DNA of 63,700 bases, the filler included. It is 6 parts of 6 records of this genome, joined end to end, with 100 filler letters (N's around TTAATTAATTAA, not from the genome) between each part and the next. Parts side by side here need not be neighbours in the genome. Positions count along the whole stretch, not along the records: positions 43,627 to 50,716 come from SRR31156797_2381; 5 more parts are not named here. One strand, 5' to 3'. Within the stretch, counting starts at the first letter, position 1. Every line of letters begins with the position of its first letter. Shown here piece by piece: positions 10,144 to 50,816 of this stretch. The notes beneath the pieces were generated by a model. The model had not been told where the DNA came from. It was given only the letters and a program-made list of their open reading frames with translations, and did no database searches. The position numbers and the translations under genes were made by a program.

Positions 10144-10243
10144 NNNNNNNNNNNNNNNNNNNNNNNNNNNNNNNNNNNNNNNNNNNNTTAATTAATTAAN
10201 NNNNNNNNNNNNNNNNNNNNNNNNNNNNNNNNNNNNNNNNNNN
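10144..10243. other. Artificial contig spacer
   Basis: 100-nt N run containing TTAATTAATTAA. Confidence 0.98.
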
Positions 10244-16370: not shown

Positions 16371-16470
16371 NNNNNNNNNNNNNNNNNNNNNNNNNNNNNN
16401 NNNNNNNNNNNNNNTTAATTAATTAANNNNNNNNNNNNNNNNNNNNNNNNNNNNNNNNNNNNNNNNNNNN
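16371..16470. other. Artificial contig spacer
   Basis: N run containing TTAATTAATTAA. Confidence 0.98.
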
Positions 16471-21036: not shown

Positions 21037-22644
21037 ATGCCTATGAAATTACTACGAACCGCTGCCTTGAGCGCAGTTTTCCTGACGGCATCCTTATCCG
21101 TGACGATGGCCGGAACGCCGGCGGATCAGTTGGTCGTCGGCATGAACATGACCAATTTCATCTCGCTGGATCCGCCCGCCACGAGCGGGCGTCAGGCCTT
21201 CGAGATCACGTCAAACATCTACGACCATTTGCTCGAACTCGATCCAAAAGACCGCAAGATCGTTCGTCCCGCCCTTGCCGAGAGCTGGGAAGTCAGCCCG
21301 GACGGCACCACGATCACGCTTAAGATGCGCAAGGACGCGAAGTTCCATTCGGGAAATCCCGTCACCGCCAACGATTTCGTGTGGTCCCTGACCCGCGCCT
21401 TCAAGCAGAGCCTGACCCAGGCAACGACCTGGAAGAGCTTCGGCTTCAACGCGGACAACGTGGCCGAAACGATCATGGCGCCCGATCCGCAAACCGTCGT
21501 GATCAAGATTCCCAACCCGACGGACCCGGTCCTGGTGGTCAACACGATTGCCATCATCCCGTCGTCGCTGGTGATCGACAGCAAGCTGGCCATGGAGCAC
21601 GAAAAGGACGGCGATATGGGCAGCGCGTGGCTGGCGGCCAACGATGCCGGATCCGGACCGTTCATTCTGAAGTCCTGGCAGACCAACAACCTGGTCATGC
21701 TCGAGCGCTTCGACGACCATTGGAGCGGCCCGGCCAAGATGAAGCGGGTCATCTATCGTCATATGCCGGAGCCGCAGTCGCAGCGCTTGGCGATCGAAAA
21801 GGGCGACATCGACGTTGCCTCGGGCATGGCGGGGCCGGATATCAAGGCGCTTGCCAACGACCCGAACATCAAGCTCGACGAGGTCCAGAGCGGTAACATC
21901 TACTATCTGGGCATGAGCCTGAAGCACGAGAAGTACCAGAACCCGAAGGTTCGCGCCGCCGTCCGCCTGTTGATCGACTATGAGGGCATCAACACCGCGA
22001 TCATGCCGTACTTCGGCTTCCCGCACCAACGCCCGATCCAGCACGGGTCGATGGGCGACCTGCCGGATCCGGGCTTCAAGCTCGACGTCGAGGGTGCGAA
22101 AAAGCTGCTGGCCGAGGCCGGCTATCCCGACGGCTTCGAGGCGACCATCCGCGTTCTGCCGGACTCGCCGTTCATCAATATCGCCACCTCGATCCAGGCG
22201 ACCCTGGCGCAGGGCGGCATCAAGGCCGAGATCCTGCCGGGCAGCGGCGATCAGGTGTATGGCTCCATGCGCAAGCGCGACTTCGACATGATCGTCGGTC
22301 GCGGCGGCGGCGGTCGCGATCCGCATCCGCACGGGAACATGCGCTCGCAGATCTACAATCCCGACAACCGTGACGAGGCGAAGCTGACCTCGTTCCAGGG
22401 GTGGCGCTCGTCCTTCCACAACGAGGAACTCAACAAGATGATCTTGGCCGCGTTGCTGGAGCGGAACAAAGCCAAGCAGGAGCAGATGTACAAGGACATC
22501 CAGAACAAGGTGGCCGAGGTGGTGCAGTCGCTGCTGCCGATCTCGCAGGCCGTCGACACCATCGTCTACCGGGCCGATGTCCAGAACTACGTCTACCATC
22601 CGTGTTGGACGACCTATCTGAAGGGCGTCTACAAGCAACGCTAG
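21037..22644 (+). CDS. Dpp/Opp (family 5) ABC substrate-binding protein
   Basis: Signal peptide, SLDP, LAESWEVS.DG, KFHSGNPVTA.D and GSGPF motifs. Confidence 0.92.
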   Translation: MPMKLLRTAALSAVFLTASLSVTMAGTPADQLVVGMNMTNFISLDPPATSGRQAFEITSNIYDHLLELDPKDRKIVRPALAESWEVSPDGTTITLKMRKDAKFHSGNPVTANDFVWSLTRAFKQSLTQATTWKSFGFNADNVAETIMAPDPQTVVIKIPNPTDPVLVVNTIAIIPSSLVIDSKLAMEHEKDGDMGSAWLAANDAGSGPFILKSWQTNNLVMLERFDDHWSGPAKMKRVIYRHMPEPQSQRLAIEKGDIDVASGMAGPDIKALANDPNIKLDEVQSGNIYYLGMSLKHEKYQNPKVRAAVRLLIDYEGINTAIMPYFGFPHQRPIQHGSMGDLPDPGFKLDVEGAKKLLAEAGYPDGFEATIRVLPDSPFINIATSIQATLAQGGIKAEILPGSGDQVYGSMRKRDFDMIVGRGGGGRDPHPHGNMRSQIYNPDNRDEAKLTSFQGWRSSFHNEELNKMILAALLERNKAKQEQMYKDIQNKVAEVVQSLLPISQAVDTIVYRADVQNYVYHPCWTTYLKGVYKQR

Positions 22645-29217: not shown

Positions 29218-29317
29218 NNNNNNNNNNNNNNNNNNNNNNNNNNNNNNNNNNNNNNNNNNNNTTAATTAATTAANNNNNNNNNNNNNNNNNNNNNNNNNNN
29301 NNNNNNNNNNNNNNNNN
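29218..29317. other. Artificial contig spacer
   Basis: N run containing TTAATTAATTAA. Confidence 0.98.
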
Positions 29318-43526: not shown

Positions 43527-43626
43527 NNNNNNNNNNNNNNNNNNNNNNNNNNNNNNNNNNNNNNNNNNNNTTAATTAATTAANNNNNNNNNNNNNNNNNN
43601 NNNNNNNNNNNNNNNNNNNNNNNNNN
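43527..43626. other. Artificial contig spacer
   Basis: N run containing TTAATTAATTAA. Confidence 0.98.
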
Positions 43627-43627
43627 G

Positions 43628-43657
43628 GTTAAAATCAGACCTTAGAGGGATTGAAAC
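43628..43657 (+). CRISPR. Single 30-bp CRISPR direct repeat of methanogen type (no array visible in the contig)
   Basis: GTTAAAATCAGACCTTAGAGGGATTGAAAC. The 5' GTTAAAATCAGACC is typical of methanogen repeats; the 3' ATTGAAAC is the Cas6 handle of I-B/III repeats. One copy only, 1 nt from the contig edge. Confidence 0.75.
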
Positions 43658-43658
43658 C

Positions 43659-43721
43659 TGGCACGAAGTTTGGTCGAGAGTCGTAAAAGATATACCAGAG
43701 TTAGAATATATAAGAAAATAG
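43659..43721 (+). pseudogene. C-terminal fragment of a gene, possibly a viral head-morphogenesis (MuF-like) protein
   Basis: Reads WHEVWSRVVKDIPELEYIRK* and stops 10 nt before the next ATG. The family is inferred from context only. Confidence 0.4.
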
Positions 43722-43731
43722 GGATTGTGAC

Positions 43732-43968
43732 ATGACAGGCGGTATTTTATTGGATGATAGTACGGATTCTGAGATTCTATACAGCCCGGTCTGCACTTTT
43801 TGTAAGCATCTTCGTAGTCCTACCCTGAACCCCAATGGCACGAGTCACAACACATGTGATGCTTTTCCAGATGGGATTTCTGGTGAGATATGGAAAGGTG
43901 ACAACGACCATAGAAAACCTTACCATGGGGATAATGGAATTCAGTTTGAATCGCGTGGTAAACAATGA
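43732..43968 (+). CDS. Small Cys/His-rich protein, copy 1 (virus-associated type)
   Basis: 78 aa; CxxCxH...CDAFPDGI...DHRKPYHGDNGIQFE. Confidence 0.75.
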   Translation: MTGGILLDDSTDSEILYSPVCTFCKHLRSPTLNPNGTSHNTCDAFPDGISGEIWKGDNDHRKPYHGDNGIQFESRGKQ

Positions 43969-44138
43969 CCTTAATAATTCCTCAGTGTGACTATTGCAGT
44001 CACTACCGCGAGCATCAGAAATGTGATGCTTTCCCCGGAGGGATTCCTATGGACATCCTGTTAAATGAAGTAGATCACCATAAGCCATACAACGGTGACA
44101 ATGGAATTCAGTTTGAGAAACGGCTGAATGGTGGTTAA
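43965..44138 (+). CDS. Small Cys/His-rich protein, copy 2 (paralogue; not in the ORF track)
   Basis: 57 aa MTLIIPQCDYCSHYREHQKCDAFPGGIPMDILLNEVDHHKPYNGDNGIQFEKRLNGG; ATGA overlap with copy 1. Confidence 0.8.
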   Translation: MTLIIPQCDYCSHYREHQKCDAFPGGIPMDILLNEVDHHKPYNGDNGIQFEKRLNGG

Positions 44139-44139
44139 T

Positions 44140-44688
44140 ATGGATGCCGACGAGCGAATGCTTAGCGCTCTTCAAATGGAATTGGAGAGAGGGCGGGACA
44201 TCTATGACAAAGTTAAACATGTTTCCACCATTTCTGGTATACTAATTGGATTTATTTTAACTTCGTTGAGTTTATTACAGACACAAACAGAAGTGTTGTC
44301 ATCAATAAAAAATTCCACGCCTTTGTTTATATTGATTTCAGTGATATTGTTTATTGCTGGTCTTAGTGTTTATGTGTACATGGTGGTCGATTTTCAATAT
44401 TTTGTTGTTGAAAAGGAAGTAATCGAACGTATATATAACAACCAAAATACCGACCAGCTTGAGAATATCCAAGGCCAAAACAATAATAGACAACGGTATC
44501 TTGTTATTGGATTTGTAGCCTTCGTCGAAGGGCTTGTAGCATTGTTTGTAAGTATGGCAGGCATAATAGATGTTATGTTTGAGACTCCAAAATGTCTTTT
44601 TAACATCGTTTTTTGGTTAGGAATTATAGTAGGGACGGCTACTCTTTTTCTCGTTTATTTTAAAGTGTATAAGAGAATAGATGGGTAA
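44140..44688 (+). CDS. Hypothetical 4-TM membrane protein
   Basis: Four hydrophobic segments; GGTGG RBS before ATG 44140. Confidence 0.65.
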   Translation: MDADERMLSALQMELERGRDIYDKVKHVSTISGILIGFILTSLSLLQTQTEVLSSIKNSTPLFILISVILFIAGLSVYVYMVVDFQYFVVEKEVIERIYNNQNTDQLENIQGQNNNRQRYLVIGFVAFVEGLVALFVSMAGIIDVMFETPKCLFNIVFWLGIIVGTATLFLVYFKVYKRIDG

Positions 44689-44831
44689 CGCTCAGCAACC
44701 GCCACGGAGGTGGCTGACCTTTGGGTTGTAACCCACGAAATGCCATCATATGCCTTAAGGAACTCGTCGAGCGAGATAAAATCGAAGGTGTCATGAAAGG
44801 CTGAACATGGGGATTCAGGTTAAAAAAATAA
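44689..44831 (+). pseudogene. Degraded small winged-HTH gene
   Basis: SATATEVADL [frameshift] LGCNPRNAIICLKELVERDKIEGVMKG*TWGFRLKK reads as a wHTH with one frameshift and one stop. Confidence 0.55.
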
Positions 44832-44854
44832 ACAAAACCGCTCTGTTATTGCAT

Positions 44855-45721
44855 TTAAAAATATACTTTAACATGGTTTATTACAATTGTGAAAAAAGGC
44901 TTCAAGAACTCATATTTAGTATCAAGTAAAGCAATTATACCAAGCAAACTAAGTAAGTGGGCCAACATCCCATCTTTTACAGACACAAGCGTATCTTCAA
45001 AAAAACTGGGTTTTGAGTAGTGCTCTTCGACATGATTTTTTGTTTCAGCATACAATGCTTCATCAAAATTTTTGACAACAAGATTGATTTCGTTGCTGAA
45101 ATCTTTTAATTGTGTTACATTTAACTGTTTTTTAGTAGCAAATATATTTGTATCTAATTCTTTTAAAAAGTCACAAACCAAAAAGAGATTGAAATTGTCT
45201 TTCTGTATCAATTTCAATGTGAAATCGGAGAATAAATCTACATTTTTGTTTGTTTGTTTTCGTTCTTCGTCTATTGAGATACAAGCTGAATCGACCTTTT
45301 TAACGTGTCTTTTGAGATGGAGCATTAATGACAGATATGTTCTTTGAAAATTTCTTAATGCATTTTTTTTGTGATATTGATTAGTAGATAAATGATAGCT
45401 TAGGATGTTTGAAATCGTTAATTTGTAAGTAATATAAAATGAAATGTCCTTTAGAATGGGATAAGCTACTACAAATACTAAGAACAGTAACAAAATCGTG
45501 CTGGTGGCATAACTAAAGTTTATAATTGATACCTTAAAGTCAGATGCAAAAATCACATATAATGTGACTACAGATAATGAAAAACGCGAAATGTGCTTAT
45601 CTATGATTAAAAAATAATACCAAGCATGGTGATTTTTAAGAATCGATGAGAAATATTTGTAATAGTAATTATAAAAATGATTCCTATAAGGAGATTTTTT
45701 ATCCCTCATCAAATCCACCAC
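44855..45721 (-). CDS. Hypothetical membrane-anchored protein (possibly extends to ATG 45826 across an in-frame TGA)
   Basis: 288-aa AT-rich ORF with hydrophobic segments; 34 further in-frame codons lie upstream of TGA 45722-45724. Confidence 0.6.
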   Translation of the reverse strand: MVDLMRDKKSPYRNHFYNYYYKYFSSILKNHHAWYYFLIIDKHISRFSLSVVTLYVIFASDFKVSIINFSYATSTILLLFLVFVVAYPILKDISFYITYKLTISNILSYHLSTNQYHKKNALRNFQRTYLSLMLHLKRHVKKVDSACISIDEERKQTNKNVDLFSDFTLKLIQKDNFNLFLVCDFLKELDTNIFATKKQLNVTQLKDFSNEINLVVKNFDEALYAETKNHVEEHYSKPSFFEDTLVSVKDGMLAHLLSLLGIIALLDTKYEFLKPFFTIVINHVKVYF

Positions 45722-46068
45722 TCACAGAAGTCCAGTCTCTACTAATGCCTCGTAAATTTTGATTAAAATATAAATTAACAGCGCAATTTTTAAAACATCG
45801 GTCAAGTTGTTGTAGAGGGAAAGCATATGAAGCACATTATTTTTTATTCTTAATTAAGGTAACTTGATATATAAAGTCATCAGAATTTCCACTGCACAGT
45901 GTCAGAGATTCAGACAAAAAAAATCCACATAATAACATCTTTATACTGTGCAAGACTATCAAATATTTAACTCATATCTAGAGGGGTTTAACTTCGTAAA
46001 CTGATATGTATATACATACGCATAGCGAACCGGACAAATCCCACACTATAGATCAGGTGGAATGACAC

Positions 46069-46974
46069 ATGTCTAAATTTTATGTTGATTTTTTACAAGA
46101 CTATCCCCTATACAGAAAACACGAAGTTGAAGATTCAAACATTTTTGACGAATTTAAAAATACTGCAATTTATGTGTATTGCAAAGAATGTGGATCTGAA
46201 CAGTCTTTTGTTCATTATGACACATTACATGGAGCAAAAGTTCGCGATTTTCTTAGCTCCCCAGCACCTCCTATAACAGGTGGCAAAGCAATGATAGCTA
46301 TGCCAAACCCAGTATCGTTCAAATCAAAGTTGAAAAATGTGGATGAGTTTGTCATACATCTGGATTTTATATGCAAAGGTTGTGGTAAATCCCATAGATA
46401 TTTTTCGATTAAAATTATAGATGATTTTTCTTTAATTAAAATAGGTCAATATCCTCCTTATGATATCTCAGTACCATCAAACATTTCGAAAGCATTGGAT
46501 GAGAAAAATACCGAGTTATTCAAAAAGGGGATAATTTGCGAATCACAAGGATATGGCATTGCAGCATATGCTTACTATCGTCGTATTGTAGAATTGATTA
46601 TAGATGATTTGCTCAATGATATTTCAGAACTAATCGAAAACAGCGATAACAAACAAAAGTACGAAGAAACACTGGAAAAAACAAAAAGAACGACGGTCAC
46701 CCAAGAGAAAATTGAACTTGTAAAAGATTTACTTCCATCGAGTTTAAGACCGGGTGGATTAAATCCTTTGGGTATTTTGCATAGCACTTTGAGCGAAGGT
46801 TTGCACTCATTATCAGACGAGACATGTATCGATGTTGCAGAGGAAATCAAAACTTCTTTGGTGTACCTAGTCAGCGAAGTGCTTAGACACCAACAAGAAT
46901 CAAAGATATTTTCGGCAAGTATGGGTAAGATACTGGATAAGAAGTCCAAAAGAAAAAAAGAAGGTGACCAATGA
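46069..46974 (+). CDS. Zn-ribbon protein with helical C-terminal domain (DUF4145/HEPN-like, tentative)
   Basis: CKEC...CKGC pair, KIGQYPP, AYYRRIVE and LSEGLH; AGGTGG RBS. Confidence 0.7.
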   Translation: MSKFYVDFLQDYPLYRKHEVEDSNIFDEFKNTAIYVYCKECGSEQSFVHYDTLHGAKVRDFLSSPAPPITGGKAMIAMPNPVSFKSKLKNVDEFVIHLDFICKGCGKSHRYFSIKIIDDFSLIKIGQYPPYDISVPSNISKALDEKNTELFKKGIICESQGYGIAAYAYYRRIVELIIDDLLNDISELIENSDNKQKYEETLEKTKRTTVTQEKIELVKDLLPSSLRPGGLNPLGILHSTLSEGLHSLSDETCIDVAEEIKTSLVYLVSEVLRHQQESKIFSASMGKILDKKSKRKKEGDQ

Positions 46975-47339
46975 AAGAATCAGCAATTCTCAAGCTATCA
47001 GAAGCTCAAATTGAAAAAATAGAGCGGGTTAATGAATCAATTGAGCGTAAGGAAAATGCAATTGCTAGAAAAGAATCGCAGATGAAACTTCGGATTCTTT
47101 TTGAACGTGCTGCTCATGAGACGTTGCCATTCATTGTTTATGTCATCTACATGGGATGTATGGGGCTGTTTGTTTTATTCAAAGTACTTGATTATGAAGG
47201 AGAAAAACTATACATAGCATCGTTTTTACTGTTTGCTATAATGATAATCCCATTGTTTGTGCTGCCCATACACGCTTGGCAAGGATTGAAAAACTGGTTT
47301 AAAAGTAAAATAGGAAAACAATCCGAGGAAGTTAAATGA
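46971..47339 (+). CDS. Hypothetical protein, coiled-coil plus 2 TM
   Basis: ATGA overlap with the upstream gene; charged helical N-terminus, then two hydrophobic helices. Confidence 0.6.
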   Translation: MKESAILKLSEAQIEKIERVNESIERKENAIARKESQMKLRILFERAAHETLPFIVYVIYMGCMGLFVLFKVLDYEGEKLYIASFLLFAIMIIPLFVLPIHAWQGLKNWFKSKIGKQSEEVK

Positions 47340-47809
47340 TTCCTGATGATGTAGTGGGATCACCTGTTAACCTACTTGCAACAGTGTGTGCTATCTCATT
47401 ATTGATGCTTTATTACACCACACTGTCGGTTTATCAAGTGTTTACGTGGGCAATATTAACATTTCCTATGATGCTTCTCTGGAATGACAAAGATAAGGCG
47501 GTAATGTGTTCCGTTTTGTTATTTGTGGCTGAAATATGCCCCAAAACTAATCTTTTTACTATAACTCTCAACATTCAAATAAAAAGCTCACCGCCCGCGG
47601 ATAAGTGGTGCAGCTGGTTGGTATGCAAAAAGGGTGGTTTTTTGAATACTTGTGGGTTGTAGCTGCACCATTTAGACACAAAAACTAGTATCATATAAAA
47701 TTTTTTGATTTTGTTCTGTTTCAACTTTCCTTTTAATACCCTTTTGTTAAACTTAATAGGATGAAGTTAAATCGATAAATTGATAATTTTGCAATGTATT
47801 GTTGAATAC

Positions 47810-48490
47810 ATGAGTGAAATTGAGGAAACTTCAAAAGCTATTGCGGAAACTGCAAAATTTGGAACAAAGGCTCTTGATACTGGTGACAAGTTAGGCGGCT
47901 TTCTATCAAAAGTATTGGGATACCCTACTGAAGAAGCAATTGGAATAGTTGGAGACGCGTTGAAGTATAAGCGTTGGCAACGCCAAGTCAGAATGATTGA
48001 TAAGGTTAATGATGATCTTGAAAAGAGAGGGGTTGAAAGTGTTAGACCAATTCCTCCAAAACTTGCAATTCCCATGATTGAAAATGCAAGTTTGGAAGAA
48101 GATGATGACTTGCAAGATATTTGGTGCAGACTTATTGCGAATAGTTTAGACCCGAGCTTTCGTTTAGATATCAGGTATGCATACATTGAAGTCATTAAAA
48201 GCCTCTCATCCCTTGATGCGAGGATTTTAAGTATGCTCTACAAGAACTCTCAACAACCGTTTTTAAGATCGAAACATCTTTTTACTGATGAGATATTCAA
48301 GAGAGTTTTACGATTAAAGTATACAGGAATGGATTATGATATTTCTTTACTAAATTTACAAAGATTGATGTGCATAGAACATGTACTTGTTAAAAGGGCA
48401 TACGCCGATGCAACACAAGAAATCAGAGACCATCGTCAATATTCACTTACTATCTTCGGCATGTTTTTCGTTAAAACTTGTATGGAATAG
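47810..48490 (+). CDS. Abi-alpha (DUF4393)-like protein
   Basis: RPIPPKLAIPMIENASLEEDDDLQDIWCRLIAN, YIEVIKSLSSLDARIL, SLLNLQRL and LTIFGMFFVKTC match the pattern of this family. Confidence 0.7.
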   Translation: MSEIEETSKAIAETAKFGTKALDTGDKLGGFLSKVLGYPTEEAIGIVGDALKYKRWQRQVRMIDKVNDDLEKRGVESVRPIPPKLAIPMIENASLEEDDDLQDIWCRLIANSLDPSFRLDIRYAYIEVIKSLSSLDARILSMLYKNSQQPFLRSKHLFTDEIFKRVLRLKYTGMDYDISLLNLQRLMCIEHVLVKRAYADATQEIRDHRQYSLTIFGMFFVKTCME

Positions 48491-48554
48491 AATGTGTCCA
48501 ATACAAGCACGTTTTTTAACACAATCTTTTTATATTTTTAACATACATTCTCGA

Positions 48555-48581
48555 TTATCTAATGATATTTGCATTAGATAA
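48555..48581. promoter_or_regulatory. Perfect 10-bp inverted repeat (operator-like)
   Basis: TTATCTAATG-N7-CATTAGATAA upstream of ORF 48639. Confidence 0.4.
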
Positions 48582-48638
48582 ACTCTGTATTTTTTGCCAT
48601 AAAACTTTTATACCGTTGCCATACACCCTAAATCGCTA

Positions 48639-48962
48639 ATGGTAATTATTTCAGGAACAGCATTTCCATTAGACGAACTCAATTCAAGTGGATGGTGTGT
48701 CCCATCATCAGAGGCAGACAATGCCATCTCTTCTCTCAAAAATGCTGTTATCCGAGTATGTCCCAGGTTTTCTCCCCACGGATGTGACCTTTCTGAAGAC
48801 CCAAAGGCCGAGATAGGCAGGGTACTTGATGCCTGGAAAAAAGGCAACGAGATCAAAGCCAAGGGCGATATCACTGATCAAGTAGCTTCTGCGAAGATCC
48901 AGGACAGAACATGGCCAAGGGCTTGGCAAGACCTGCAATATGGATTCCACTTGAAGATGTAA
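48639..48962 (+). pseudogene. Truncated prohead-protease-like viral gene
   Basis: ISGTAFPLDELN..GW, H...EIGRVLDAW and IKAKGDI resemble the N-terminal half of caudoviral prohead proteases. The ORF ends abruptly and no capsid gene follows. Confidence 0.5.
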
Positions 48963-49087
48963 AGGGGCTTAAGACACTGGTTGGTGAAGGTTTAAACCAG
49001 CAGCAGATAGCAGACTATTATACGGAAAGAGGTATTGAGGTAACGCGGTCTACGGTATCCCGTAAAATGAAAGAGTGGAATCTCTAA
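48911..49087 (+). CDS. Small HTH protein or HTH-domain remnant (not in the ORF track)
   Basis: 58 aa ...ARPAIWIP...GLNQQQIADYYTERGIEVTRSTVSRKMKE, an HTH pattern. Confidence 0.55.
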   Translation: MAKGLARPAIWIPLEDVKGLKTLVGEGLNQQQIADYYTERGIEVTRSTVSRKMKEWNL

Positions 49088-49199
49088 ATCTCGGGGATTA
49101 TGCAGCATAAATAGTCCGGATTGTTCTGGAGTAATTATGATGAGTCAACATCAAAGTTACTTTTAATAAAAAAATAGAAATTTAAAAGTTCCTTCGCTT

Positions 49200-50375
49200 T
49201 CACAATCCATCCACAAATGTCCCAATTCTCTCCAGGGCTTTTTCGATTTCCTCGAGGGATGTCGCATAGGAGCATCTCAAAAAGCCAGTACCTGCTTCAC
49301 CGAACACGTTGCCGGGGATCGTGACAACTCTTTGTTCGTTCATCAGGCGTTCTGCGAAGTCCTCGGAGCTTAGGCCTGTGCTCTCTACGGATGGGAAGGC
49401 GTAGAATGCGCCTTTTGGTTCGAAGCATTCAAGGCCGATCTTGTTCAGGCCGTTGACGATCAGGTGGCGGCGGCGGTCGTAGCTGCGGACCATGCGCTGC
49501 ATTTCGTGCTTGCCGTTTTTGAGGGCTTCGATGGCGCCTATCTGGGCTGTGATGGGGGCACAGAGCATAGAGTACTGGTGTATCAGCATCATGGCGCTGA
49601 TAATTTCAGGGGATGCCATTGCATAGGCCAGTCTGAAACCTGTCATTGCGTATGCTTTGGAAAAGCCGTTTAGCAGGATAGTCCTGTCCCGCATGCCTTC
49701 AAGGGCTGCAAAACATGCATGTCCACCGTTATAGGTCAGGCAGTCGTAGACCTCATCGGAAATAACCATGATATCATGTTCGCAGACCACATCTGCAATA
49801 GCCTCAAGCTCTTCCCTGTTCATAGTAGCCCCTGTGGGGTTGTTCGGGAAGTTGATCATGACTGCTTTTGTCTTTGGTGTGATCGCAGCTTCAAGTTCTT
49901 CAGCTGTCAGCTTGAAATTATTCTCAATTTTTGTTGAGATAATAACAGGAACTCCGCCTGCAAACATCACGGAAGGCACATATGCCACATATGATGGCTG
50001 CACGACAATAATCTCGTCACCTGGATTAGTGATAGCTCTTATAGCTACATCCAGTGCTTCACTGACTCCTGAAGTAACAAGGACCTCGGAATCGGGATTG
50101 TATTGCACACCGTACTTCATGGAGAAATGTCTGGCCAGCTCTTCCCTGAGCTCAATAAGGCCGTAATTAGATGTATATGAGGTTTCGCCACATTCCAGTG
50201 AATGAATGCACGCTTCCCTGATGTGCCAGGGAGTAACATAATCCGGCTCACCTACACCAAGGGAGATAACATCCTCCAGACCTGATGCAAGATCAAAATA
50301 GCGGCGTATGCCCGACGGGGGAACCCTGTCCATTACATCCGCTACGAATTTTGAAGGCATGCATGCTTTTCTCAT
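49200..50375 (-). CDS. Class I/II PLP-dependent aminotransferase
   Basis: LGVGEPD, NNPTG, ISDEVY and GFSKAYAMTGFRL motifs. Confidence 0.93.
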   Translation of the reverse strand: MRKACMPSKFVADVMDRVPPSGIRRYFDLASGLEDVISLGVGEPDYVTPWHIREACIHSLECGETSYTSNYGLIELREELARHFSMKYGVQYNPDSEVLVTSGVSEALDVAIRAITNPGDEIIVVQPSYVAYVPSVMFAGGVPVIISTKIENNFKLTAEELEAAITPKTKAVMINFPNNPTGATMNREELEAIADVVCEHDIMVISDEVYDCLTYNGGHACFAALEGMRDRTILLNGFSKAYAMTGFRLAYAMASPEIISAMMLIHQYSMLCAPITAQIGAIEALKNGKHEMQRMVRSYDRRRHLIVNGLNKIGLECFEPKGAFYAFPSVESTGLSSEDFAERLMNEQRVVTIPGNVFGEAGTGFLRCSYATSLEEIEKALERIGTFVDGL

Positions 50376-50401
50376 ATATTATACATCCTGTAATGTGACT
50401 C

Positions 50402-50716
50402 TTACGGAGTCACCGGTAAACGTGTAACATGGTCCTGCTCGTGGAGGATAACGCCATCCTCTTTGTAGGTCTTCAGGACAAAATGTGTTGAAGTGTGTTG
50501 TACCTGTTCAAGGGTGGATATCTTCTCAGCAACAAAAAAGGCAACTTCCTTCATTGTCTTGCCGGAAACAGTAAGTGAAAGGTCGTATTGTCCGGACAGG
50601 AGTCTGACAGAACGTACTTCCGGGAATTTGTACAGGCGCTCAACAAGGGGCTGGTATCCAATTGTTCTTTCAAGGCTTACCTTAAGCTCAATAATTGCAT
50701 AGACGTTTTCATCACC
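50402..50716 (-). CDS. Lrp/AsnC-family regulator, C-terminal part (5'-truncated)
   Basis: Manual translation ...LYKFPEVRSVRLLSGQYDL...TSTHFVLKTYKEDG...; the common Lrp plus aminotransferase pairing. Confidence 0.85.
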   Translation of the reverse strand, partial: GDENVYAIIELKVSLERTIGYQPLVERLYKFPEVRSVRLLSGQYDLSLTVSGKTMKEVAFFVAEKISTLEQVQHTSTHFVLKTYKEDGVILHEQDHVTRLPVTP

Positions 50717-50816
50717 NNNNNNNNNNNNNNNNNNNNNNNNNNNNNNNNNNNNNNNNNNNNTTAATTAATTAANNNNNNNNNNNNNNNNNNNNNNNNNNNN
50801 NNNNNNNNNNNNNNNN
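50717..50816. other. Artificial contig spacer
   Basis: N run containing TTAATTAATTAA. Confidence 0.98.

Follow-up and report, generated by a model that had tools for sequence, protein, structure and literature searches.

A provirus remnant beside host genes

The 63.7-kb stretch of DNA analysed here (the window) contains, on one of its six contigs (positions 43627–50716; 7,090 bp, GC content 0.385), a provirus remnant whose surviving genes enclose a group of cargo genes. From left to right, on the forward strand unless stated otherwise, this contig comprises an exact 30-nt repeat of the CRISPR type at its very edge (43628–43657), the 3′ end of a long-form gene for the minor head protein MuF (20 codons and a TAG stop; 43659–43721, identified by tblastn), and two genes for small cysteine-rich proteins, sCys-1 (78 residues with three cysteines and one histidine; 43732–43968) and sCys-2 (57 residues; 43965–44138). 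Six cargo open reading frames (ORFs) follow. On the far side lie a conserved region with a TTTTATA-like box (48591–48638), homologous to the upstream region of the protease-scaffold gene of relatives and marking the right edge of the slot that holds the cargo, the N-terminal ~96 codons of this protease-scaffold gene, of the family that we term P327 (48639–48926, by alignment to relatives), and an intact gene for a 58-residue helix-turn-helix (HTH) protein (48911–49087). The contig ends, on the reverse strand, with a host class I/II aminotransferase gene (49200–50375; PF00155, E 2e-73) and the C-terminal part of an Lrp/AsnC regulator gene (50402–50716), which is cut by the contig end and was assigned by family match and synteny.

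An initial annotation of this DNA had listed a gene end, two small cysteine-rich paralogues, about five unrelated AT-rich ORFs (a protein with four transmembrane segments, a membrane-anchored protein, a zinc-ribbon protein with a partner of two transmembrane segments, and an Abi-alpha-like protein), a truncated protease-like ORF and adjoining host aminotransferase and Lrp genes. All these elements are present: the gene end corresponds to the last 20 codons of MuF with its stop, the paralogues are 48% identical over 60 residues (E 1e-18), the GC content of the cargo is 0.343 compared with 0.485 for the host genes, and the two host genes keep the same arrangement at 14 Methanosarcinaceae loci. 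The CRISPR repeat in the first 30 bases had been overlooked, and the winged helix-turn-helix debris described as preceding the protease ORF proved to be the intact 58-residue HTH gene, located 3′ of the protease remnant. An intact homologue of the latter gene occurs in a non-viral context of another Methanolobus genome (L079).

The aminotransferase is 92% identical to its counterparts in Methanolobus bombayensis and M. profundi, and on sequence grounds the host of the remnant is a Methanolobus. At the 14 syntenic loci, DNA similarity to the window spans only 49170–50716 and ends with the aminotransferase gene; tblastn with the ten ORFs to its left returned no match within 10 kb downstream, and no provirus genes were found downstream of the aminotransferase at any of these loci. 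The 5.5 kb to the left of the gene are thus strain-specific, and the downstream flank of the aminotransferase varies among Methanolobus genomes.

The flanking genes derive from the head module of a tailed virus

A DNA search with 43658–49199 against 177 Methanosarcinaceae genomes returned matches in 50 of them; two pieces recurred, one comprising the initial 290 bases and the other the region around the ORF at 48639. In all five contexts found first, homologues of sCys-1 and of this ORF were collinear, on one strand and 1.3–5.8 kb apart. L084, the relative in which the module is best preserved, encodes, in this order, a portal-sized ORF, MuF (PF04233 with 33.8 bits, the cut-off being 29.6; also the minor head protein family phrog_115), a 77-residue sCys, one cargo gene, a P327 protein of 327 residues, a decoration protein (phrog_766), a capsid protein of the HK97/encapsulin fold (Linocin_M18, 4e-11), a head–tail adaptor, a tail terminator and the major tail protein, and L085, which is close to L084, carries the large terminase as well (PF03237 and PF17289). 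The order in intact relatives is large terminase (TerL), portal, MuF, sCys where present, slot, protease-scaffold, decoration, major capsid and tail genes. P327 itself is encoded by 34 of the 177 genomes, with about 25 full-length copies and many N-terminal fragments resembling that of the window, and by 26 viral contigs of IMG/VR. These data confirm the viral nature of the flanks and the order portal–MuF–protease–capsid invoked by the initial annotation, of which the window retains, in the same order, the 3′ end of MuF, sCys and the 5′ end of the protease gene. The MuF remnant is 95% identical to residues 458–476 of the 477-residue L084 protein (tblastn).

No match to capsid, tail, terminase, portal or integrase genes was obtained on the remnant contig or elsewhere in the window, and the locus is a provirus remnant, not a complete inducible provirus. 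Decayed copies of this provirus family are common in Methanosarcinaceae. At loci L110–L127, protease-scaffold fragments of 40–135 N-terminal residues were seen, often with MuF fragments nearby.

The frame starting at 48639 stays open to 48962 and, over this length, aligns with residues 1–105 of proteins of 320–344 residues in 24 relatives; beyond 48926 the sequence is unrelated (alignment A2), the divergence setting in at about residue 96 with a glutamine at position 97. Among 15 P327 sequences His47 is invariant and Ser97 nearly so, a pattern of conservation that suggests a catalytic role for both. The window copy retains His47 and has lost Ser97 and everything beyond. An AlphaFold model of the L084 protein (327 residues, based on the 15-sequence alignment) has a mean predicted local distance difference test score (pLDDT) of 73; values in the N-terminal domain (residues 1–130) are mostly 81–93 with a dip to 58–64 at residues 41–60, and a long coiled coil follows. 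Foldseek matched this model to the T4 gp21 capsid assembly protease (5jbl; E 2e-4, probability 1.0, TM-score 0.51–0.54), followed by the herpesvirus assemblins. Neither Pfam nor NCBIfam gave a match for P327, and a profile search of the PDB returned coiled-coil or chance matches only. From the gp21/assemblin fold match together with the conservation of His47 and Ser97, we read P327 as a prohead protease, which the model shows as fused to a scaffold-like coiled coil. The truncated protease-like ORF of the initial annotation is thereby confirmed through the fold of its full-length relative.

Both sCys proteins match phrog_33375, sCys-2 being a paralogue without the N-terminal 14 residues that form the predicted MuF-binding segment. 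Across 30 loci with a MuF N-terminus, sCys follows all nine MuF genes encoding 465–545 residues and none of the 18 genes encoding 281–305 residues or of three near-identical genes encoding 430 residues. A model of the MuF extension in complex with sCys (both from L084) reached an ipSAE of 0.89 in three runs compared with 0.02 for the best control, a mark attained by 51 of 78 solved complexes and by 2 of 108 mismatched pairs. The pLDDT of the partner is at least 90, the runs share at least 97% of their contacts, and the N-terminal 24 residues of the modelled sCys rest on an invariant block of the extension. This supports the prediction that sCys binds the C-terminal domain of long-form MuF, on which it would act as an inhibitor, an immunity-like partner or a substrate. 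The possibility that sCys is itself defence cargo was rejected on the basis of its distribution (9/9 long-form against 0/21 other MuF genes) and the predicted complex; sCys is a conserved member of the viral module and not cargo.

The invariant block (T-H-N-H-P...S...S-x-x-D) of the C-terminal extension (L084 4775–5308, MuF residues 300–477, and relatives) resembles the JAMM/JAB metallopeptidase motif, a likeness that has no Pfam or PDB support: the extension had no Pfam match at E ≤ 0.001, and its profile (MuF-CT) found nothing better than E 0.5 among PDB sequences, the matches being of the coiled-coil or chance type. Rearranged MuF genes were observed in two further proviruses, where partial duplications (residues 13–308 and 223–477; L086 6606–13815) or three MuF fragments (L097 3195–7686) bracket inserted cargo, which suggests insertion via recombination inside MuF.

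A variable slot separates MuF/sCys from the protease gene

To describe the site occupied by the cargo, markers were mapped in 43 proviral loci (the first five and 38 more, with ~13 kb per provirus). Both flanks, represented by a match to MuF and by the P327 start, were present in 27 of these loci and in 10 of the 26 IMG/VR contigs. The slot between them measures from 284 bp (L105) to 7,330 bp (L127) in the 27 genomic loci and 70–569 bp, with a maximum of 3.5 kb (L150), in the viral contigs. An empty state is represented by L155 and L162, where only 70 and 99 bp, respectively, separate sCys from P327. L084 and L085, whose protease, decoration and capsid proteins are 95–99% identical, differ in their cargo, which consists of one 397-residue gene in one and of three small genes in the other. 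The DNA of the window becomes homologous to that of relatives again at 48591, so that the cargo occupies approximately 44139–48590 (4.45 kb). The variable slot between MuF and protease in a Methanosarcinaceae provirus, which the initial annotation had postulated, is borne out by the unrelated cargo of these 27 loci and 10 contigs: the flanks do have viral homologues and the content of the slot is not invariant.

We analysed slot content with Pfam for the ORFs of 24 two-flank loci, of L087 and of the window, and with PADLOC for 60 slot ORFs and the window ORFs. Clear defence or toxin–antitoxin families were detected in 8 of 25 scanned slots. Besides the Abi_alpha/PDC-S47 protein of the window, these are MNT (PDC-S09) in L091, L094 and L095, accompanied by HepT in L091 and L095, a NYN RNase in L093, a Schlafen-AlbA_2 protein resembling Argonaute-associated proteins in L098 (1e-18), PDC-S41 (2e-128) with a Dsr1-like protein (2e-59) in L099, and PDC-S02/YhcG nuclease in L118 (2e-62). 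HepT/MNT is the baseline slot content of one clade; L092, L096, L100 and L104, which lay outside the family scan, have ORF sizes equal to those of L091 or L095. Other cargo includes three FilR1-type regulators and a PAS histidine kinase (L088), a second PAS histidine kinase (L098), a MacB-like ABC transporter with a CARDB protein and a TrmB regulator (L091), insertion sequence (IS) transposases (L117, L127) and redox genes (L127), and the remaining slots hold ORFs without any match. Together, the slot between MuF/sCys and P327 is a general cargo site, often with defence-type genes.

Further intervals in these proviruses seem to be variable. In L084, a SIR2_2 protein of 519 residues and a 127-residue ORF lie upstream of the portal gene (227–2144), and the interval between portal and MuF extends over 2.2–3.5 kb in one clade (L105, L107, L158, L160, L162) compared with ~80 bp in other members.

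Cargo genes of the window

The best-defined cargo protein of the window is a 236-residue member of the Abi_alpha family (47780–48490). It matches PF14337 with 93.8 bits against a cut-off of 29 (E 1.8e-26), over profile positions 6–196 of 196, as well as PADLOC PDC-S47 (1e-15), and its family assignment, made from sequence, is secure. NCBIfam gave no match for any of the window cargo ORFs.

A 301-residue protein (46069–46974; phrog_25239, E 5e-39) combines an N-terminal four-cysteine zinc ribbon with a C-terminal helical domain. Its family comprises at least 799 members, mostly unnamed and of ~265 residues, with an Atlas score of 0.97 to unnamed bacterial clusters; in an alignment of 31 sequences (A5) the four cysteines are invariant, arranged as two CxxC pairs, and the C-terminal half is strongly conserved. 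In the structural model (pLDDT 84), residues 133–280 appear HEPN-like by VIA-align, with Z-scores of 6.5–8.7 (AF_0298 8.3, AbiA 8.1, RnlA 7.3, LsoA 6.8, HepT 6.6, Csm6 6.5), which are moderate, as values below ~13 are common among helical bundles. Foldseek returned no match for this model (best E 0.017, TM-score 0.16). The HEPN motif is R-x(4-6)-H. It is absent from alignment A5, in which R171, R172 and H246 are invariant and a block L-S-E-G-L-H is conserved. Homologues are found in two further mobile contexts of Methanolobus-like genomes, one of them within the MuF duplication of L086 and the other in L176, where an integrase, a D5-type primase-helicase and the remnant of an sCys gene are neighbours. 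Relatives are rare in phage and plasmid collections, with 1 and 2 records, respectively, at 32–35% identity.

The start of the next gene, for a 122-residue protein with two transmembrane segments by hydropathy (46971–47339), overlaps the stop of the 301-residue gene. A conserved two-gene system formed by this pair is unsupported, the 122-residue gene being missing beside the homologues in L086 and L176. It is followed by a doubtful 108-residue ORF with a hydrophobic N-terminus (47336–47662), which matched no family in Pfam, PADLOC, PHROG or NCBIfam.

The two remaining cargo genes encode putative membrane proteins. The first, of 186 residues with about four transmembrane segments by hydropathy (44128–44688), matches phrog_8552 (E 2.5e-5); the homologue search found no relatives, and the leads from the Atlas all scored 0.80 or less, including a PycTM row at 0.76 that probably reflects chance. 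The second, on the reverse strand (44855–45721), has 288 residues and two or three transmembrane segments by hydropathy. With a chance of 5e-11 for such an open frame it is far too long to be fortuitous, and it belongs to a very rare family, since a set of 1.84 billion representatives yielded nine matches (E ≤ 1e-3), of which the top one is 46% identical over the full length. We consider the 301-residue protein and the membrane proteins as candidate defence genes. A scan for promoters and terminators of the bacterial type was uninformative for this archaeal DNA.

The locus as the probable middle part of a provirus with putatively antiviral cargo

Taken together, the region is very probably what is left of the middle of a provirus of the tailed HK97 type, integrated in the chromosome of a Methanolobus, with a slot whose cargo would in part be antiviral. 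On the left, the deletion stops exactly at the CRISPR repeat; on the right, it reaches to about codon 96 of the protease gene, which is there joined to the small HTH gene neighbouring the host aminotransferase. The initial annotation had described structural genes that decayed while the cargo stayed open; the structural genes are indeed gone and the cargo is open, yet the loss took the form of two clean deletions and not of gradual decay. In the proposed course of events, the cargo would enter by recombination in the intergenic spacer between MuF/sCys and the protease gene and its expression in the lysogen would not depend on the late genes. Part of it would protect host and provirus against other viruses, with Abi_alpha working by abortive infection, by analogy to the premature lysis caused by its enterococcal namesake. 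As the packaging and capsid genes have been lost, the cargo would now form a fixed island of the chromosome, adjoining a CRISPR array.

Several observations weigh against this interpretation. Integrase, attachment (att) site and tRNA are absent from the contig, on which ~116 viral codons and the two sCys genes are left, and none of the 26 viral contigs with P327 contains a homologue of the window cargo. A defence-family match was obtained for only one of the six window cargo ORFs (Pfam, PADLOC, NCBIfam), 17 of the 25 scanned slots lack a clear defence or toxin–antitoxin match, and several slots contain kinases, regulators, a transporter or IS elements. The association between sCys and MuF length tracks clades, so that its events are not independent, and the complex in which sCys binds MuF is a predicted one. 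Finally, among 486 spacers from 12 arrays with the repeat found at the left edge of the contig, no match of at least 26 nt to the contig or to the 43 loci (~13 kb each) was detected.

The observations on cargo content also bear on the most serious alternative, namely that the slot serves as a moron site for accessory genes in general and that the window cargo mainly alters host physiology or membranes, the Abi_alpha gene being incidental. The PAS kinases (L088, L098), FilR1/TrmB regulators, MacB-like transporter (L091), IS elements (L117, L127) and redox genes (L127) of the relatives fit such a site, as does the window itself, where five of the six cargo ORFs match no defence family and three of these five encode membrane proteins. 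Yet the 8 of 25 slots with PADLOC or toxin–antitoxin families (PDC-S41, Dsr1-like, PDC-S02, HepT/MNT), the Abi_alpha score far above the Pfam cut-off and the predicted HEPN-like fold of the 301-residue protein, a fold common to many Abi (abortive infection) and toxin proteins, argue for a defence component, and we regard a mainly accessory role of the window cargo as possible, though the less probable explanation. Of the candidate defence genes of the initial annotation, Abi_alpha is the one that matches a defence family; the other five cargo ORFs of the window do not.

A CRISPR repeat abuts the MuF remnant

The 30-nt repeat at the left edge ends in ...ATTGAAAC, which would make it the terminal repeat of an array extending to the left. 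It is present as a single copy in the window and did not occur in 100 shuffles. With up to three mismatches it was found in 38 of 151 Methanosarcinaceae genomes, and exact copies reside in arrays of six genomes (G022, G062, G143, G145, G008 and G118), with a period of ~66 bp in several. Its match to the Rfam family CRISPR-DR2 is weak (24.6 bits, under the gathering score of 37). The window repeat is a perfect copy, whereas the terminal repeat of the G062 array is degenerate. Homology to MuF starts at the base directly 3′ of the repeat.

One sequencing run, X1, contains this DNA: a single contig of 125,237 bp at a depth of 41.6 covers 43627–50716 without differences and stops at the repeat, which likewise forms one end of another contig, 9,406 bp long and at a depth of 40. 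The depth of the repeat 31-mer is 330 compared with 41.6 for the flank, corresponding to ~8 copies, and no joint or loose end was reported at 43658. Run X1 is probably the source sample and hence not independent, and its contigs drop rare variants; in run X2 none of the stretch was present. The junction between repeat and MuF thus has the appearance of genuine chromosomal DNA present in a single copy.

A repeat of the same family occurs in one related provirus, that of genome G149 (L085 9543–9572), where it lies between terminase and portal; it directly continues the 3′ flank of the terminase gene, and a scaffold gap comes after it. The sequence upstream of it has no clear homology to the aligned host leaders, and the terminase–portal interval of L084, the closest relative, contains a SIR2_2 gene. 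The other 60 proviral or viral loci have no copy of the repeat within 6–7 mismatches, IMG/VR contains no exact match, and no provirus genes were found in the 14-kb flanks of other arrays (13 loci). Metagenome scans for the repeat end followed by the MuF motif, and for the junction preceding the G149 repeat, returned no hit in either case.

The junction may have arisen from a host array lying next to the provirus, from a virus-borne array, or from a deletion by recombination between spacer and protospacer. The last of these would amount to a CRISPR-mediated domestication of the provirus, in which a spacer matching the 3′ end of MuF, located in a host array or in a virus-borne array like that of G149, recombined with the integrated protospacer. 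Such an event would remove the portal gene together with most of MuF, and possibly the terminase gene as well, and would leave a perfect repeat in register with the last 20 MuF codons and the cargo fixed in the chromosome. We put this specific route forward as a doubtful one.

Even less likely, in our estimation, is that the join was created during assembly, by a spacer identical to the provirus that misled the assembler from the array into the provirus. The break of the contig at the repeat, the onset of MuF homology exactly at the expected spacer start and the probable identity of the only run containing this DNA with the source sample would all be compatible with such an error. A shared spacer would, however, produce a branch and a doubled depth at 43658, whereas the X1 contig traverses this position without a joint and agrees with the window throughout. 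It is very improbable that no provirus ever resided here and that a host defence island by a CRISPR array picked up viral gene fragments by recombination, as the adjoining array, the lack of an integrase or att site on the contig, the variable downstream side of the aminotransferase among Methanolobus and the non-viral homologue of the HTH gene might suggest, for the fragments keep the order, orientation and intergenic signals of the head module, including the protease upstream region, and decayed proviruses in which an N-terminal piece of the protease lies close to pieces of MuF are seen in many genomes.

Comparison with known systems

Hotspots of antiviral systems have been described in P2-like phages and P4-like satellites of Escherichia coli (PMC9122126, accessible part of the text). 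As far as that part reports, they share with the slot described here a fixed site between conserved viral genes and an exchangeable, diverse cargo, much of which is defence-related. They differ from it in that the Methanolobus slot has an archaeal host, belongs to an unrelated virus lineage and lies inside the head-morphogenesis module, that the Methanosarcinaceae slot also holds kinases, regulators and transporters, and that its role in defence is a predicted one. Defence genes in archaeal head-tailed proviruses have also been published (PMC11705971), the terms 'Methanosarcin', 'Methanolobus' and 'MuF' being absent from the accessible portion of that article, and neither 'hotspot' nor 'mini-CRISPR' appears in the text of a 2026 archaeal provirus atlas (PMC13573593). 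A literature search, with supplements outside its scope, found no description of a slot between MuF/sCys and the protease gene.

The founding member of the Abi_alpha family, ef2833 of prophage 6 in Enterococcus faecalis V583, is a single-gene abortive-infection determinant that acts through premature lysis (PMC6356687). The window protein likewise belongs to DUF4393/PF14337 (E 1.8e-26) and is encoded by a single gene on a virus or provirus. It is archaeal and shorter, with 236 compared with 272 residues, and the lysis and Abi phenotype pertains, in the accessible text, to the enterococcal protein.

In MuF polymorphic toxins, a small downstream immunity ORF accompanies 89.4% of 191 genes (PMC5576092, accessible text, in which the word 'archaea' does not occur). 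The archaeal genes resemble these in combining a long MuF carrying a C-terminal extension with a small ORF that is always downstream (9/9 here), and the two products are predicted to bind each other. The extension of the relatives, in contrast, has no recognisable toxin domain in Pfam or among PDB sequences, and in the window MuF has been lost by deletion, so that just the small genes are left. Long-form MuF and sCys may thereby point to an archaeal counterpart of the MuF toxin/small-partner pair.

With the gp21, HK97 and assemblin proteases, P327 shares the predicted fold of its N-terminal domain, a His–Ser spacing of ~50 residues, a C-terminal part that forms a coiled coil, and a gene located just upstream of those for decoration and capsid. 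It differs from them in lacking a match at the sequence level, its catalytic residues are assigned by conservation only, and the window copy ends before Ser97. A capsid protease fused to a scaffold is also found in gpO of phage P2.

Viruses can carry mini-CRISPR arrays (PMC6858448), and a CRISPR–Cas locus has been found nested in a haloarchaeal provirus (PMC11705971), both according to the accessible parts of these articles. The G149 provirus, which holds a host-type repeat between terminase and portal, and the window, where the repeat abuts the remnant, are comparable; the G149 array is, unlike those, hidden by a scaffold gap, and the other 60 loci are without the repeat.

In methanogens, only a small number of antiviral systems have been tested. 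The slot provides a simple rule for candidates, namely to take any gene that a Methanosarcinaceae provirus carries between MuF/sCys and its prohead protease gene. This rule already retrieves known and candidate defence families of PADLOC together with many unannotated genes, including the zinc-ribbon/HEPN-like family with its 799 or more members. The cargo of the window offers candidate archaeal defence genes, and a CRISPR repeat fused to a viral gene fragment bears on the routes by which proviruses are inactivated; the cargo and the CRISPR junction are most worth following.

Other contigs of the window

The linkers between the six contigs have the form N44-TTAATTAATTAA-N44 and mark artificial boundaries (10144–10243, 16371–16470, 29218–29317, 43527–43626 and 50717–50816). 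With GC contents of 0.51, 0.50, 0.62, 0.45, 0.385 and 0.31 in order, the contigs look like DNA of different organisms. Since they are separate, genes across a linker, including the DNA left of 43627, are not genomic context of the remnant. Judged from translations, the contig to the left (GC 0.45) contains bacterial-looking genes for ATP synthase and GlmU, and the one right of 50716 (GC 0.31) carries AT-rich two-component genes in an unrelated context. On the contig with a GC content of 0.62, positions 21667–21861 gave a weak tblastn match to the L084 portal protein (35% over 71 residues, E 0.005), which, by this similarity, may be the portal gene of an unrelated phage in another organism.

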